This document shows, piece after piece, positions 27,718 to 35,730 of a stretch of DNA of 64,000 bases (within the stretch, counting starts at the first letter, position 1; the number at the start of each line of letters is the position of its first letter). The notes under the pieces are model-generated. The model was not told the DNA's origin, ran no database searches, and saw only the letters and a list, made by a program, of their open reading frames with translations. Origin of the DNA: Promethearchaeota archaeon Loki_b32 (GTDB taxonomy: Archaea > Asgardarchaeota > Lokiarchaeia > Sigyniarchaeales > SOKP01); assembly GCA_005223125.1 (NCBI GenBank), contig NJBH01000008.1, positions 64,001-128,000 of the forward strand, read 5' to 3'. A program made the position numbers and the translations under genes.

Positions 27718-29289
27718 TTAATTATTATCAACAGTTTCTCCATATCCAATTAACCGATAACGTCTATTTATTATTCTCGAAATTGCAAAGATAAAATCTT
27801 CTGCAGGACATATTGGAGGATTTAATTTAATGATAACACTGTCTTTTAAAATTTTAGTTACTGTTCCTCCTGTTTTTTCTGTACCAACGACTAATAATAA
27901 TTTTTCATTATGCTTAAGCGAATGTACTCTGAGCATCTGCTCGGAGCCAATCACCCTATCTAATAGGTTCACTTTAAATTCAATTTCATGAAGGATTTCA
28001 GGTAATGTATCTGGTTTTCCGACTAGGTTCCCTATTAAATGATCACCCTTAGTTAAAGCAGGATCTAAGTTAGTTCCTAAACCTATAAGCCCTCCAGGTT
28101 TTGCGTTATCTAGTAGGTTACTCCCTTGACTAATACTAACAACAGTAGATTTTAAAGGAATGTATTCATCTTTCACCCTTAAACCCGGTCGAATTTCTAT
28201 TTGATCTCCAATTTTAATCATTCCTTTTAACACTGAACCACCAATTACCCCACCCTTTAAATCACTTATTTCTTTCCCAGGTCTATTAATATCAAAAGAT
28301 CGTGCAATTAAAAATTGAAATTCGCCTTCAGGAAGTTTGGGGGATGGAATAATTTCTTCAAATGCTCTTATAATTAAATCTATATTTGCTCCAAATACAG
28401 CGGAAATTGGTATTATTGGAGCGTTTTCAGCAATAGTTCCCTTAATAAATTCTTTAATTTGTTGGTAATTTTCTAATGCTTGTTCTCGTGAAACCGCATC
28501 AATTTTATTTTGAATGATGATGATATTTTTTATTCCAGCAATGTGTAATGCTTCTAAATGTTCCCTCGTTTGTGGTTGAGGACATCGCTCATCAGCCGCA
28601 ATTAATAAGCAAGCTCCATCCATTAATGAGGCCCCACTTAACATTGTTGCCATAAGAATTTCATGACCAGGAGCATCAACAAATGAAATATTCCTTCTAA
28701 ATTCTAATTGTTCTTTACATTGTGGGCATAAGTAACGGGGTTGTCCTTTTTCCCTTGACTTCTCCGCTAGATAATATGTTATATATTCATCACAATTCGG
28801 ACAATATAAAATTGTGGCATTAGAATACCCTAATTTTATTGAAATTCCTCTTTCTTGCTCTTCAGAGTGTCTATCTGTCCAATCTCCTGTTAATGTTTTC
28901 ACTAATGTAGTTTTTCCGTGATCCACATGACCTACTAAACCTATATTACATTCAGCTTGTTTTTTTATTAATTCTTTAATATTTGAAGCTTTAGTTTTAG
29001 ATTTTGGTTTTGGTTTAGGTTTAGATTTTGGTTCTAGTTCTGGTTTTACTTTAGAAATAACTTTTACTTTAGATTTTGGCTCTTCTTGAGCACCAATTTC
29101 TTGATATAATTTCTTTGCATTAGTAATATATTTCTTTGCAGTAGCAGCACCCACACCTTTAATCTTTAACTTTATTAATTCATCAGGATTAACATTAGCT
29201 AATTTTGCAATGCTATCTATCCCTGCAGCTTTCATTTTATCTGCAGTAGCTTTTCCGATGCCAGCAATATCTGTTAAATCATATGACAT
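27718..29289 (-). CDS. eif2g: Translation initiation factor aIF2 gamma with an N-terminal HhH domain
   Basis: NIGLVGHVDHGKT, RGISIKLGY, DAPGHE, QPQTREH, NKID and RSFDINRPG; N-terminal tandem HhH (GIGKATA, GVGAATA). Confidence 0.95.
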   Translation of the reverse strand: MSYDLTDIAGIGKATADKMKAAGIDSIAKLANVNPDELIKLKIKGVGAATAKKYITNAKKLYQEIGAQEEPKSKVKVISKVKPELEPKSKPKPKPKSKTKASNIKELIKKQAECNIGLVGHVDHGKTTLVKTLTGDWTDRHSEEQERGISIKLGYSNATILYCPNCDEYITYYLAEKSREKGQPRYLCPQCKEQLEFRRNISFVDAPGHEILMATMLSGASLMDGACLLIAADERCPQPQTREHLEALHIAGIKNIIIIQNKIDAVSREQALENYQQIKEFIKGTIAENAPIIPISAVFGANIDLIIRAFEEIIPSPKLPEGEFQFLIARSFDINRPGKEISDLKGGVIGGSVLKGMIKIGDQIEIRPGLRVKDEYIPLKSTVVSISQGSNLLDNAKPGGLIGLGTNLDPALTKGDHLIGNLVGKPDTLPEILHEIEFKVNLLDRVIGSEQMLRVHSLKHNEKLLLVVGTEKTGGTVTKILKDSVIIKLNPPICPAEDFIFAISRIINRRYRLIGYGETVDNN

Positions 29290-29729: not shown

Positions 29730-31892
29730 ATGGTTAGGTTTTCTACTAAAAAATTTATCTACTTTTCAATCATCATTTTAACTCTCATTCCACTTGTCAG
29801 TTCAAGTCTAAGTTTTAGCTTCTCGAATTTAGAAAAGAATAATGTTTCGGAGGAAATTAGAGTTTCAAATGGAAACTTAGATTTGGATTTATCATTTCTA
29901 CCAGATATTGATTATTCTTCGTTAAATAATCTCTGGTATAACCATAAAATCGAAATGTTGATAATAACTCCAGATGGTTCTGCATTTGTCAACGCAATTC
30001 AACCATTAGCAGATTGGAAAAATGAGAAAGGGGTAAAAACAGTCATATTAAGCAATTACTCTTCATATGAAGGTGTGGATGATGCTGATAAAATTCGTAA
30101 TATGATTAAATCGTATTATGAAAAAGAAAATGTTAGATGGGTCCTTTTAGCAGGTGATGCTGGAAACGGAAAGAATGAGCTCCCGATTAGATATGTTTAT
30201 AATCCCGATGTTAGAAGCGTGGACCCACCTGAAAGTGAATCCATAGGAGATAATTATTTTAAACCTACGGATTTTTATTATGCGGATCTTACAGGTACTT
30301 GGGATAGCGATGAAGATGAAGTATGGGGAGAGGCACCAGAGTATAATGATTTTGGTTTAGATGAGATTTCATGGATCCCTGAGGTTTATGTTGGAAGATT
30401 ACCCGCAGGTAATTCCGTTGAACTTGAGACTATGGTAAACAAAACATTAAAATATGAAACTGATCCAGACGTAGATGATTGGATGAATAATATGCTCCTC
30501 GCTGGAGGTATTTCTGATACATTTTTTCAAGAGCCTCCAGATGGAGAAGATGAATCAAAACTAACTACATATATTTGGCAGAATTATGTTTTGTCAGAGA
30601 TGAACTTTACCCATTTATGGAGATCGACATATTATATACCTCCTGATCCTAAAGAACCATTAAATTCAACAAGTTTCATAGATCAATTTAATTTAGGTTA
30701 TTCAACGGTAATTTTTGCGGGTCATGGAGAATATTCTAGATATTTAGATCAATCTGGTACAATATATACCAATAATGATGCTCAAAATGCATTAAATACT
30801 AATAAACCTTCATTAGTCTATGGAGATGCATGTACTACATCTAGCTATGATTATAACAATAATAGTATTGGAGAATATTTAATCAAAAAAAAAGATGCTG
30901 GAGCAATTGGATATATCGGAGGTTTAAGAGTAACATGGTACCACGTGAATGATGACAACCTAGAGAAATTGAATCGTGGAAACGCGAAGCTTTTTTGGAA
31001 AGAATTTTTTGAAGGAAAAAAGTTTCAACAAGGAAGAGCTCTATATGATTCTAAAGTTGCATATATAAATAGTGACTATTATAAAGGAGGAGAAGGAGCA
31101 ACATATAAGGAATGGGAACGTAAAAATCTATTAACATACTGTCTTTTGGGTGATCCAGAACTTGATATTTATACCAATAAACCAAAATTGGCATTAAATC
31201 CTTTTACTGAAAATATTTATGAAGGCCAATTAGTTTCTACATCGATAAAGGATATCAATGGTAAAAACATTCCTTACGCAAGAGTTCACTTAAAATCATC
31301 TGATGGTAAATATTATACAGCATATGCAGATGAACGTGGTTTAGTGAGATTCCGTCTTCCTGCTCAAGCAACTGAATTTTATAATGTAACTATTACAGGA
31401 CATAATTTAGTTCCAACACATTTCAATTTTACTACAATTCCAGATAATTACGACCCTCAATTACTCAGATTAGACGTAATTCCTGAGAAACCTTCATCAT
31501 CTAACAAAATAAATTTTAGTATTGAAACTTATGATAATATGTCTGGAATAGAAAGTGTATATTTAGTATTATCAAAAGACAACTTTACTACTTACTCATA
31601 TTATGAATCAACAAATAGCTATGAAGAAAATAATGATGTATTTACAATCACTACTGACAGATTAACTTCGGGTGAATATTCCTATTGTATTGTTTCAAGA
31701 GACTATGCAAACAATACAAATGTGTTTTATAATTCAGGATTCACTTTTTCTCTATTAAAACCTATGATAGATTATATATTTATTTCATTTAGTGTTATGA
31801 TTGTTGCAATCATAGGAATCTCTGTTTTCAGTCTCTTCAAAGGTTTACAAAGATATTCTCGTGTTGTCAAAGAGATTGAAAAATTAACGTAA
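29730..31892 (+). CDS. C25 (gingipain-family) cysteine peptidase, membrane anchored
   Basis: WKNEKG, LLAGD, TDFYY, VGRLP, catalytic GHG and DAC, LLGDP; C-terminal TM. Confidence 0.9.
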   Translation: MVRFSTKKFIYFSIIILTLIPLVSSSLSFSFSNLEKNNVSEEIRVSNGNLDLDLSFLPDIDYSSLNNLWYNHKIEMLIITPDGSAFVNAIQPLADWKNEKGVKTVILSNYSSYEGVDDADKIRNMIKSYYEKENVRWVLLAGDAGNGKNELPIRYVYNPDVRSVDPPESESIGDNYFKPTDFYYADLTGTWDSDEDEVWGEAPEYNDFGLDEISWIPEVYVGRLPAGNSVELETMVNKTLKYETDPDVDDWMNNMLLAGGISDTFFQEPPDGEDESKLTTYIWQNYVLSEMNFTHLWRSTYYIPPDPKEPLNSTSFIDQFNLGYSTVIFAGHGEYSRYLDQSGTIYTNNDAQNALNTNKPSLVYGDACTTSSYDYNNNSIGEYLIKKKDAGAIGYIGGLRVTWYHVNDDNLEKLNRGNAKLFWKEFFEGKKFQQGRALYDSKVAYINSDYYKGGEGATYKEWERKNLLTYCLLGDPELDIYTNKPKLALNPFTENIYEGQLVSTSIKDINGKNIPYARVHLKSSDGKYYTAYADERGLVRFRLPAQATEFYNVTITGHNLVPTHFNFTTIPDNYDPQLLRLDVIPEKPSSSNKINFSIETYDNMSGIESVYLVLSKDNFTTYSYYESTNSYEENNDVFTITTDRLTSGEYSYCIVSRDYANNTNVFYNSGFTFSLLKPMIDYIFISFSVMIVAIIGISVFSLFKGLQRYSRVVKEIEKLT

Positions 31893-32462: not shown

Positions 32463-32579
32463 CTACACCCCCTTGTTTATTCCTTTTAAATTTAACGTTT
32501 AAAAGCAAAAATTTTAATTATTAGCGTTTATTATTCCTATTTACTTGTAACCATATAAGTAGGTATTTTCTTATAAAAT

Positions 32580-32607
32580 AACCGATACTTATAAAATGGT
32601 TATATAA
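32580..32607 (+). promoter_or_regulatory. Candidate BRE/TATA promoter for the 5S precursor
   Basis: ACCGATAC-TTATAAAA lies about 25 nt upstream of the start of the leader stem (~32612). Confidence 0.45.
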
Positions 32608-32649
32608 TGGTGCTAATAACCATATAAATTAAAAGCAACTCGCTTAGTG

Positions 32650-32805
32650 CCGGAAGTTAAACTTGTATGCGTTGTAGATAGTACTGTAGTTGCGATCTAT
32701 GGGAAACTACAAACTGTAAATTTGTTTACGGTCATGGTTTACGAGGAAAATACCCGGTCCCATCCGAAAAACCAGCTAATTTCGAGATGGTTCGGGAACC
32801 CGGAA
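32650..32805 (+). rRNA. rrf: 5S rRNA gene, circularly permuted (3' half 32656-32720, linker TTTG, 5' half 32725-32768 plus 32799-32805), with a 30-nt intron
   Basis: The reassembled sequence has all five 5S helices. It also has loop C CCGAAC, the helix III AA bulge (CCGGAAGUUAA), loop E UAGUA/GAA and a GCGA loop. Length is 116 nt plus a 4-nt linker. Confidence 0.85.
32769..32798 (+). other. Putative BHB/BHL-type intron in 5S loop C
   Basis: UCCG/CGGG 4-bp helix, AAA bulge, AACCA/UGGUU inner stem; removal restores CCCAUCCGAAC. Confidence 0.7.
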
Positions 32806-32917
32806 ATGCTATTTTATGTGGTTATAGTGTTTTCCATTTTTAGATTCCTCTAAAAATAAGTTTTTATATTATTAATTATATGCTTAATTAATACGGAATA
32901 ACTCTTGTAGTGATACC

Positions 32918-33460
32918 TTGCCAAAAAAGTGGAAAGTCGTTCTCAAAACAATTGGAAGAAAGTGGTTTCTAATTCTTTTAGTGATTATCATCATTGTTGT
33001 TATATACAGTCCAATAGCAGCAATTTGGATGACCGGTATCACCTTAATTTTATTTCTTTTATCCTATATTCCAAGATTGTTTTTCAAAAATAAACTCCAT
33101 AAATTTTTGAAGAAATACTATAAAATTGAAGATAATTTAATTGCAAGAAAGTTTAAAAAACCACTCGAGAAAATCCAAGATGAATTGTTTGAGTTATCAC
33201 AAAATCAGGAGAAGAAAAGCTGGTTAATTACTTTTTTAAATAAACAGTATGTTTTCTATCATCAAGAAACCATTGAAAAATTCAAGGAAGTATATAATAA
33301 AGGTTATACTGAGAAAGAAATTCTTGATAGTTTGAAAGACTTTAAGGTTAATACTAGAGCAGAAATTAAAATAATCAAGGAAACCCTTGTTAAGCTTGAA
33401 AGACTTAGTGAGAGAGAAATCTCTGTAAAAGAACACAAAGAGAAACAAAGATTTGCCTAA
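32918..33460 (+). CDS. Hypothetical protein with 2 N-terminal TM segments
   Basis: 180-aa ORF; hydrophobic hairpin followed by a soluble domain. Confidence 0.7.
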   Translation: MPKKWKVVLKTIGRKWFLILLVIIIIVVIYSPIAAIWMTGITLILFLLSYIPRLFFKNKLHKFLKKYYKIEDNLIARKFKKPLEKIQDELFELSQNQEKKSWLITFLNKQYVFYHQETIEKFKEVYNKGYTEKEILDSLKDFKVNTRAEIKIIKETLVKLERLSEREISVKEHKEKQRFA

Positions 33461-34133: not shown

Positions 34134-34655
34134 ATGCCACAAAAGTTCATTCTTAAGATCCTTACGGCAGGGGAAGGAGGAGTGGGGAAAACAACACTAC
34201 TCCATAGGTATGTAGAGGGGAAATTTTCAGCTGAAACTAAAATGACAATTGGTGTAGAGTTTTTCTTGAAAGAGACGCAAATTGACTCGAATCACTGCAC
34301 TCTACAACTCTGGGATTTTGGTGGTCAAGAGCGGTTTAGATTTTTACTTGAAAGTTACGTATTAGGAGCAAAAGGAGCACTTCTCATGTTTGACCTCACA
34401 AGGTTAATGAGTCTTGAAAATTTGCAGCAATGGATTAACATTGTTCGGAAAGGTGATCCAAATCTTCCTGTTCTCTTTGTAGGTACAAAATTGGATTTAA
34501 CCGATGAGATCCAGATAGATGACGATTATGCTATGTCTTTTTTAAATGAATTTAACTTGATTGATTATATAAAAATCTCTTCAAAAACGGGCGAAAATGT
34601 TGGTACAGTTTTTGAAATGTTAACAAGAAATATATTAGAGCGCCAAGCCTATTGA
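34134..34655 (+). CDS. Rab-like small GTPase
   Basis: GEGGVGKT, TIGVEF, WDFGGQE, TKLD and SSK. Confidence 0.93.
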   Translation: MPQKFILKILTAGEGGVGKTTLLHRYVEGKFSAETKMTIGVEFFLKETQIDSNHCTLQLWDFGGQERFRFLLESYVLGAKGALLMFDLTRLMSLENLQQWINIVRKGDPNLPVLFVGTKLDLTDEIQIDDDYAMSFLNEFNLIDYIKISSKTGENVGTVFEMLTRNILERQAY

Positions 34656-35095
34656 AATCCAAGAATAGTGTAGTGGTTATCGATTCTAATTTTATATTAC
34701 TTCCTTTTCAGTTTAAAATAGATTATTTTAACGAAATAAGATTAAAGCTTGAAGGAAAATTGAAATTTATCATATATCAACAAATTTTAAACGAATTAGA
34801 TGCAAAAAAAAGAAGAGAATCCAAAGCTACTAAATTTGCATCGTTTCTTGAATCGGGTTTATTATACTTAGAAAGGAACAAAGAGAAATATGACATTGAA
34901 ATAATGGAAGATATCAAAAATGATAACGAGACTACTGATGATTTTATACTAAGATTGTCAGTAAAGCTTAAGAATGTAGGTCAAACTGTTTATTTAGCAA
35001 CTAATGATTCAGAATTGCGTAAAAAAGCAAAAAGAATAAGGATTGGAATAATTTTTTTAAGACAAAAGAAATATTTGTCTTTTGAAAGAGCTTAA
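34652..35095 (+). CDS. PIN-domain protein (Fcf1/Utp24-like)
   Basis: IDSNF...EL...TDD...ATND.EL...LRQKK. Confidence 0.85.
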   Translation: MKSKNSVVVIDSNFILLPFQFKIDYFNEIRLKLEGKLKFIIYQQILNELDAKKRRESKATKFASFLESGLLYLERNKEKYDIEIMEDIKNDNETTDDFILRLSVKLKNVGQTVYLATNDSELRKKAKRIRIGIIFLRQKKYLSFERA

Positions 35096-35214
35096 AAAAA
35101 ATATAAAATAATTAGTACATATTAAAGTTTTAACTAAAAATATTAATACATATTTAACCCTATATTAACCAATAATCGAGGTTTTATATTTATTTACTGA
35201 TTTGATGGAGAAGA

Positions 35215-35730
35215 ATGTCCAAAGCGATATTATTAAAGATTATCACGGCAGGAGATGGTGGTGTTGGCAAGACAACACTCCTTTATCGATATATAGAAGG
35301 GAGATTTCTAGCTAATACGCGTATGACTATTGGTGTGGAATTCTTTCTCAAAGAGCTTAATATAGAAGGAAAAAAAATATTACTCCAAGTTTGGGATTTT
35401 GGTGGACAGGATCATTTCAGACCTCTATTAAAGAATTATGCTGTGGGAGCAAGAGGAGCATTACTACTTTTTGATCTCACCAGACCATCAAGTTTAGAAC
35501 GAATTGAGCAATGGGTTGATATTTGCAGAGGGGGGACTCAAGAGATTCCTATCATTTTCTTAGGAACAAAATTAGATCTAGAAGATCAAATAACAATATT
35601 CGATAGTTTTGCTTTGAAATTTAAGGAACAATATGGTTTTTTTGATTATTTAAAGATTTCTTCGAAAACTGGAGAAAATGTTAATTTAGCATTTGAACTA
35701 TTGGCAAGAGAACTTGTAAAAGACTTATAA
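35215..35730 (+). CDS. Rab-like small GTPase
   Basis: GDGGVGKT, TIGVEF, WDFGGQD, TKLD and SSK. Confidence 0.93.
   Translation: MSKAILLKIITAGDGGVGKTTLLYRYIEGRFLANTRMTIGVEFFLKELNIEGKKILLQVWDFGGQDHFRPLLKNYAVGARGALLLFDLTRPSSLERIEQWVDICRGGTQEIPIIFLGTKLDLEDQITIFDSFALKFKEQYGFFDYLKISSKTGENVNLAFELLARELVKDL

Follow-up and report, generated by a model that had tools for sequence, protein, structure and literature searches.

How does a genome in which standard models detect no archaeal 5S ribosomal RNA (rRNA) gene obtain its 5S? The RNA occurs universally, and few genes are normally easier to find. We addressed the question in Promethearchaeota archaeon Loki_b32 (GCA_005223125.1), starting from a stretch of 64,000 nucleotides (nt) that comprises positions 64,001-128,000, forward strand, of contig NJBH01000008.1. 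This stretch is called the window hereafter, and its own numbering is used unless a contig or locus is named. At the Rfam gathering threshold no part of the window matches any Rfam model, 5S included. A sequence-only reading of the same DNA had nevertheless proposed that 32612-32828 holds a circularly permuted 5S rRNA gene, apparently restored by splicing at a bulge-helix-bulge (BHB) motif and possibly left as a circular RNA, and all of its coordinates and sequences proved correct on re-reading. Our analysis indicates that the unit at 32616-32825 is very probably the single functional 5S rRNA gene of this genome, that it is circularly permuted, and that splicing by the endonuclease EndA and the ligase RtcB very probably turns its transcript into a continuous 120-nt 5S. 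Below, G000 designates the genome under study and G001 and higher numbers its relatives, while f and g designate families and genera.

A 5S rRNA gene encoded in permuted order

Between 32656 and 32805 the gene runs in the order 3' half, UUUG cap, 5' half, 30-nt insert and 7-nt exon, and it is enclosed by a leader and a trailer that can pair with each other. The parts of the unit are the following.

32570-32579 and 32588-32597, + strand: two TATA-box-like CTTATAAAAT repeats within the block 32570-32599, read from the sequence
32616-32628, + strand: outer processing stem, 5' strand, 13 base pairs (bp) with 32813-32825, including one G.U pair
32633-32645, + strand: small leader hairpin AAGC-AACUC-GCUU between the outer stem and the BHB motif, read from the sequence
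32645-32649, + strand: outer helix h of the terminal BHB motif, 5' strand UAGUG, 5 bp with UGCUA at 32807-32811
32650-32653, + strand: central 4-bp helix H of the terminal BHB motif, leader strand CCGG, pairing with 32800-32803
32654-32656, + strand: 5' bulge AAG, with a predicted cut after 32655 and a product that begins at G32656
32656-32720, + strand: 3' half of the 5S, from a partial RF00001 alignment, hidden Markov model (HMM) positions 47-115 and covariation
32721-32724, + strand: UUUG tetraloop capping helix I, at the site of the free ends in a normal 5S
32725-32768, + strand: 5' half of the 5S, from HMM positions 2-44 and alignment with canonical 5S
32769-32798, + strand: predicted 30-nt BHB intron in loop C, with an inner helix of 5 bp
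32799-32805, + strand: 7-nt micro-exon CCCGGAA, the helix III 3' strand, between two predicted cut sites
32800-32811, + strand: trailer side of the terminal BHB motif, with the H strand CCGG at 32800-32803, the bulge AAA at 32804-32806 (predicted cut after 32805) and UGCUA at 32807-32811
32813-32825, + strand: outer processing stem, 3' strand, pairing with 32616-32628
32830-32841, + strand: T-runs (TTTT, TTTTT) 3' of the trailer, read from the sequence

The 3' half contains GUUAAAC with the last two helix III pairs, the 3' strand of helix II, helix V, loop E, helix IV, loop D and the 3' strand of helix I. The 5' half supplies the 5' strand of helix I, loop A, helix II, loop B and the 5' strand of helix III, and it ends in loop C at CCGAA (..CCCAUCCGAA).

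As encoded, the gene reaches 18.1 bits against RF00001 in a permissive scan (cut-off 38), and only its 3' half aligns well. Standard tools miss the locus, as the sequence-only reading had expected. We then assembled the product in silico as 32725-32768 + 32799-32805 + 32656-32720 and compared it with an HMM built from 11 canonical 5S genes of the sister family f2. The reordered product scores 54.0 bits (E = 2e-17) over HMM positions 4-114, versus two swapped pieces for the DNA as encoded, positions 47-115 coming first (25.2 bits) and 2-44 second (10.3 bits). Its alignment with the canonical f2 genes is colinear and runs end to end. Both the permuted order and the 5S identity claimed by the sequence-only reading are upheld, and comparative data that were unavailable to that reading strengthen them. 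That reading had also given the correct sequence of the product, while leaving unsaid that a 30-nt intron must be removed to reach it and that a 7-nt exon is left behind.

The minimum-energy fold of the reordered product is the classic three-way 5S junction with helices I-V, and loop E (AGUA/GAA) and loop C (CCCAUCCGAAC) are both present. Covariation backs the helices. It was assessed on the portion of the gene that almost every genome has unbroken (39 loci, 36 distinct), where the five helices are 94.0% paired, a value that falls to 32-47% when the partners are slid by 1-3 columns; 20 of the 30 pairs have changed on both sides, and none of 500 shuffles reaches the observed values. Helix I, which is a hairpin here, is 99.7% paired and has four covarying pairs. 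In family f1 this helix measures 8 bp (7 bp in one locus) and its cap is always 4 nt long (UUUG, UUCG, UUAG, UACG or UCCG), and two loci outside f1 have 5-nt helix I loops. These substitution patterns indicate that the 5S structure is under selection.

The only archaeal 5S of the genome, and its spread among Asgard families

G000 has archaeal large-subunit rRNA, and a search with RF00001 across the genome found no other archaeal 5S. The assembly does contain one canonical gene (80.8 bits), on contig C68, and the sequence-only reading had listed a normal gene elsewhere among its possible refutations. A bacterial-type 23S containing a group I intron (L001 2054-2368, 65 bits) precedes this 5S by 46 nt. 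The contig, 33 kb long, also encodes LexA, MurF, a FemAB-family protein, PBP2 and a bacterial-type LysRS, and nothing corresponding to its 15-kb flank occurs in five other genomes of the genus, the near-identical G001 among them. On account of the bacterial 23S/5S layout, the bacterial proteins and the absence from sister genomes, C68 is a bacterial contaminant, and the possibility that a second, normal archaeal 5S exists was rejected.

Two further observations concern this contig. Its presence in the bin would let a 5S-based quality check pass falsely. It also carries an unusual 523-residue open reading frame (ORF; L193:1147-2718, + strand) that fuses LexA (residues 6-203) to a DNA cytosine-5 methyltransferase (215-518).

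No 5S above the RF00001 cut-off was found in the other 53 genomes of the genus, which counts 54 in total. Family-wide, no more than 2 of 131 genomes contain a canonical 5S, and both copies are contaminants: the one on C68 and one in G114, where the match follows the 3' end of a 23S-like rRNA of bacterial layout and the genome's own permuted copy is also present. The sister family f2, which includes closed genomes of 4.4 Mb and 6.0 Mb, has canonical 5S genes in 12 of its 14 genomes.

To follow the permuted gene we used R1, a covariance model built in the permuted order. One full-length match (83-118 bits) is found in 119 of the 135 family genomes, among them the closed chromosomes of G006 and G023. 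With the same order in these two genomes and in more than 100 assemblies, the local misassembly that the sequence-only reading had named as a danger is excluded. Across the phylum, R1 matches 24/25 genomes of f1, 4/4 of f8 and 3/5 of f13, and none in f2 (0/2), f12 (0/26) or f17 (0/19). The RF00001 canonical matches are complementary to this pattern, occurring in 26/26 genomes of f12 and 17/19 of f17. The permuted order can also be recognized by eye in families f3, f4, f6, f10, f22 and f25.

A predicted terminal processing motif with moving break points

The leader and trailer pair next to the ends of the two halves, and we applied to this pairing the BHB rule, under which each strand is cut after the second bulge base. 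The same anatomy stands at the homologous place in 41 loci: a leader/trailer outer helix, a 4-bp helix and three unpaired bases on each strand, the topology known from the BHB of archaeal tRNA introns. Cut by the rule, these loci yield products of 119-122 nt, or of 150-151 nt in loci with a 30-nt insert. All four pairs of helix H form in 39 of the 41, and the outer helix has at least 3 bp in 40 and 1 bp in the remaining one (G031). The variants of helix H are CCGG/CCGG (10 loci), CUGG/CCGG (18), CUGG/CCAG (5), CUGG/UCAG (4) and CCGA/UCGG (1), a covariation from which it follows that the leader strand is the complement of the trailer strand and not a degenerate duplicate of it. The outer helix h reads GCG/CGC, ACA/UGU or, over 10 bp, GCACUAGA../..UUUAGUGC in relatives.

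The 13-bp stem further out, which the sequence-only reading had described, includes one G.U pair. Relatives show compensatory variants of it, for example ACCACAUAA/UUAUGUGGU versus ACCACAAAA/UUUUGUGGU, as well as AGCCAC/GUGGCU, and in most loci the leader/trailer duplex is stronger than in shuffled controls (median z = -3.5).

The position of the break differs among relatives. In type A it falls after CCCGGAA, in the 3' strand of helix III; this is the arrangement of G000, of nine examined genomes of the genus and of genera g13, g15 and g22. Type B, found in most of the genus and in g17 and g18, breaks loop C between ACCCGGUC and CCAUCCGAA, and its leader has a hairpin, GUAGC-AAUUC-GCUAC, homologous to that of G000. 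Type C breaks loop B and is found in family f3. Types A and B both occur in genus g14.

This variation allows each predicted junction to be compared with DNA in which it is not broken. Type B relatives have CCCGGAA+GUUAAAC, the type A junction that the rule predicts, as unbroken DNA, and intron-less type A genes likewise contain ACCCGGUC+CCAUCC, the predicted type B junction. The mature sequences reconstructed for all break types are colinear and near-identical. The motif position and the junction put forward by the sequence-only reading hold, and the reciprocal match is, at the level of sequence, the strongest argument that ligation would occur at exactly the predicted phosphates.

One type B locus of genus g14 (L067, in G077) contains ..CUGGAAGUU.. 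in its trailer, which resembles the junction of the other break point. It may be the remnant of a terminally redundant A/B intermediate.

Probable introns in loops C and D

The 30-nt insert of G000 is framed by a well-formed, canonical BHB motif of its own. Its helix H is formed by UCCG and CGGG (U32763-G32766 with C32793-G32796), its bulges are AAA (A32767-A32769) and AAC (A32797-C32799), and its inner helix is AACCA/UGGUU (A32770-A32774 with U32788-U32792). The cuts predicted after 32768 and after 32798 match the ends of the insert exactly, and excision restores CCGAA+CCCGGAA, which is the uninterrupted sequence of relatives that have no insert. G000, G001 and G012 have this insert; G018, G013, G019, G023 and G010 lack precisely these 30 nt.

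Other genomes have a different 30-nt BHB intron, in loop D between GCGA and U, with full outer and inner helices and a compensatory change in helix H from UUGC/GCGA to UUAC/GUGA. Such introns are found in f1, for instance in L022, L023, L025 and L028, and in G053, G090 and G104, and they comprise at least three unrelated intron sequences. Among the 119 R1 matches of the family, 19 span ~132 nt versus 102, as expected for a loop D insert.

A proposed maturation route and its end state

A normal 5S can come from this gene only if the transcript is cut and rejoined. The splicing endonuclease and the ligase that serve tRNA splicing are most likely responsible. The route would run as follows. Transcription from a TATA-type promoter would produce an RNA made of leader, 3' half, UUUG, 5' half, 30-nt intron, 7-nt exon and trailer. 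Leader and trailer would pair through the 13-bp outer stem, the 5-bp helix and the 4-bp CCGG/CCGG helix, presenting two 3-nt bulges in the geometry that EndA cuts, and a second BHB would bracket the intron. EndA would cut after the second base of each bulge. RtcB would then make two joins, A32768 to C32799 across the removed intron and A32805 to G32656 to heal the permutation. What results would be an unbroken 5S of 120 nt in which helices I-V, loop C and loop E are all normal. The cutting, the joining, the order in which the two splicing events take place and the closure into a covalent ring are steps that we infer.

The enzymes of this route are encoded in the genome. G000 has one RtcB and two EndA paralogues, L195:1165-1773 (+ strand) and L196:1423-2040 (- strand), on contigs C18 and C2. 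The paralogues are ~200 residues long each and 37% identical in the catalytic domain, and the second (L196) apparently has no catalytic His in the aligned block (..FEKDSAKF.. versus ..GLEHSLFM..). Their sequences are consistent with a catalytic and a structural subunit that would form a broad-specificity (alpha-beta)2 heterotetramer. Relaxed substrates of the bulge-helix-loop (BHL, or hBH) form need an EndA of broad specificity.

The UUUG cap joins what are the two ends of a normal 5S. A 120-nt circular end state is plausible, by analogy with the circular signal recognition particle (SRP) RNA of Thermoproteus and in view of the invariably compact tetraloop on helix I. A broader proposition is that throughout the family, and in several other Asgard families, ribosomes contain a covalently closed circular 5S as their sole 5S, made by the tRNA-splicing machinery from genes whose break point has repeatedly moved and whose loops C and D have gained introns; we see its chances of being right and wrong as evenly matched.

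Several observations weigh against the proposed maturation route. A 4-bp helix or a BHB-like motif is in itself no proof, since both are common by chance in AT-rich DNA: 371 position pairs can form a 4-bp helix in a 283-nt region of G000, and a loose de novo BHB finder returns hundreds of chance motifs per locus. The evidential weight therefore lies in the position, the consequence and the covariation of the motif, not in the motif itself. The inner helix h' of the terminal motif is absent in all loci (hp = 0), and the motif is a relaxed BHB/BHL (hBH) form, as the sequence-only reading had hinted, rather than the canonical hBHBh'. The BHB of the loop C intron has no contiguous outer helix (h = 0); the terminal CCGG/CCGG helix next to it may take this part in trans. 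It is also unusual for an exon of 7 nt to need ligation on either side. When metagenomes were scanned for the 31-mer across the join, a sequence found in neither gene type, the only matches were canonical 5S genes of unrelated, higher-GC archaea on long DNA contigs. Finally, permuted tRNA circles and pre-16S/23S circles are re-opened, which tells against certainty about the ring.

Alternative explanations

The most serious alternative accepts the splicing and concerns only the end state: the ring would be an intermediate, later cut in or near the helix I tetraloop to give a linear 5S with conventional ends. We consider this unlikely. The cap in f1 is always a compact 4-nt loop of a stable type (UUCG, UUUG, UACG), with no spacer or flanking signal, and an engineered E. 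coli 5S with a capped helix I was reportedly tolerated in work by Huang et al. in 2020. Known circles speak on both sides. A passage in PMC4267664 cites permuted tRNA precursors as passing through a circular intermediate, and archaeal 16S and 23S circles are usually re-linearized (PMC12918454), whereas the nearest archaeal analogue, the SRP RNA, stays circular (PMC4731332).

A smaller chance belongs to the reading in which the insert at 32769-32798 is left unspliced, as an expansion of loop C in a 150-nt 5S. Insertions in 5S rRNA exist elsewhere, in Halococcus, and the lack of a contiguous outer helix in the intron BHB is in its favor. However, the ends of the insert coincide exactly with both BHB cut sites, and the loop that it would interrupt is the most conserved one. 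At 30 nt it has the same length as the loop D inserts, which have a full hBHBh' and a compensatory change in H, and its presence or absence varies among near-identical relatives.

We give little credence to a linear permuted 5S that is never ligated, with a permanent break in helix III/loop C, a capped helix I and a leader/trailer pairing that serves end trimming only. The permuted mitochondrial 5S of brown algae does stay permuted in the final product (PMC4267664), and in G000 the leader contains CCGGAAG, so that an RNA starting at 32650 would bring its own copy of the helix III 3' strand. In g13, g14, g15 and g22, however, the leader is the complement of that helix III strand (CUGG versus CCAG/UCAG) and not a copy, and the leader strand of g13 cannot replace it. 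The break points vary among close relatives and lie in the loop that is conserved best, yet the mature sequence deduced for these genes does not change. RtcB is present in G000, and pieces excised from BHB motifs carry the ends that RtcB joins.

That the locus is a dead retro-copy of a circular RNA or a misjoined contig, with the real 5S elsewhere, is next to impossible and was rejected, as far as sequence data can decide it: the canonical 5S in the assembly, the one point in its favor, is bacterial contamination, and the permuted locus is single-copy, conserved in 119 of the 135 family genomes, closed chromosomes included, and covarying.

Relation to known permuted and circular RNAs

The permuted 5S gene restored by EndA and RtcB would have a close counterpart in the permuted SRP RNA gene of Thermoproteus tenax, whose product is circularized at a site cut by the splicing endonuclease (Plagens et al., 2015, eLife, PMC4731332). 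Both are essential, universally conserved structural RNAs encoded as a circular permutation, with no canonical gene detectable. The SRP RNA case is limited to a few species, whereas the present one concerns the 5S of Asgard archaea, is family- to phylum-wide and is deduced here from sequence. It also differs in having several alternative break points among relatives and extra internal BHB introns.

Permuted tRNA genes, as in Cyanidioschyzon merolae, likewise place the 3' half first between a leader and a trailer that form a BHB-like motif, and their precursors form a circular intermediate; such genes have been reported in Thermofilum pendens too. Permuted tRNAs are re-opened at the acceptor stem by RNase P and tRNase Z, whereas the 5S has only a tetraloop there and no known processing signal. 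With the BHB introns of archaeal 16S, 23S and tRNA genes, and with the circular pre-16S and pre-23S rRNAs formed through BHB motifs, the locus shares the 4-bp helix, the two 3-nt bulges, the predicted cleavage by EndA and ligation by RtcB, and mini-introns that are gained and lost among relatives.

The sequence-only reading knew of no described permuted 5S rRNA gene. This needs one qualification: a "permuted" 5S of a different kind is known from brown-algal mitochondria (Valach et al., 2014, PMC4267664). There too a hairpin closes helix I, and the ends of the RNA are found at another place. In the algal RNA, however, the termini are at the three-way junction, the molecule is linear and neither a BHB nor ligation is involved, whereas the break discussed here is in helix III/loop C and is flanked by a splicing motif. 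Unlike 16S and 23S, 5S has been stated not to be processed through circularization (PMC12918454). Our literature searches turned up neither a 5S rRNA gene with an intron nor a permuted or circular 5S in archaea. As far as we found, the new elements are the 5S as the object of such a permutation, its wide phylogenetic spread, the shifting of the break points and the introns within 5S.

The authors who described closed Heimdallarchaeum genomes wrote that the 5S "could not be predicted" (PMC8813620). The failure of gene finders on Asgard genomes of this sort would be accounted for by a gene that is permuted and bears an intron, and annotation pipelines and genome-quality checks that require a 5S need a model in the permuted order. 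If our reading is correct, a core component of the ribosome depends on a splicing endonuclease and a ligase, and 5S is to be added to the RNAs that function as circles. The turnover of break points and mini-introns would then offer a natural system, in archaea related to eukaryotes, for studying how RNA genes become permuted or split.

Flanking signals and neighboring genes

The nearer of the two CTTATAAAAT boxes lies ~20-25 nt 5' of the leader stem and is a putative archaeal promoter. It sits in a block upstream of the leader, AACCG..CTTATAAAATGG, that is kept among relatives in the genus. On the other side of the unit, the T-runs at 32830-32841 are likely to be an archaeal terminator. A second block, CTCTAAAAATAAGTTTTTAT (32840-32880), is found ~40 nt 3' of the 5S trailer and is kept genus-wide at homologous positions; it may be the promoter of the downstream 180-residue ORF (32918-33460), which has no Pfam match.

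None of the ORFs that adjoin the 5S unit is rRNA-related. Directly upstream is a gene for a 720-residue protein with a peptidase C25 (gingipain-like) domain (29730-31892, + strand). Farther upstream, aIF2-gamma (27718-29289, - strand) is a single open frame of 523 residues that no BHB intron interrupts, with an intact P-loop, GHVDHGKT, and a ~110-residue N-terminal extension that holds a helix-hairpin-helix domain. Downstream, at 34134-35730 (+ strand), a PIN-domain gene stands between two genes for Ras/Rab-like small GTPases, as is typical of Asgard genomes.

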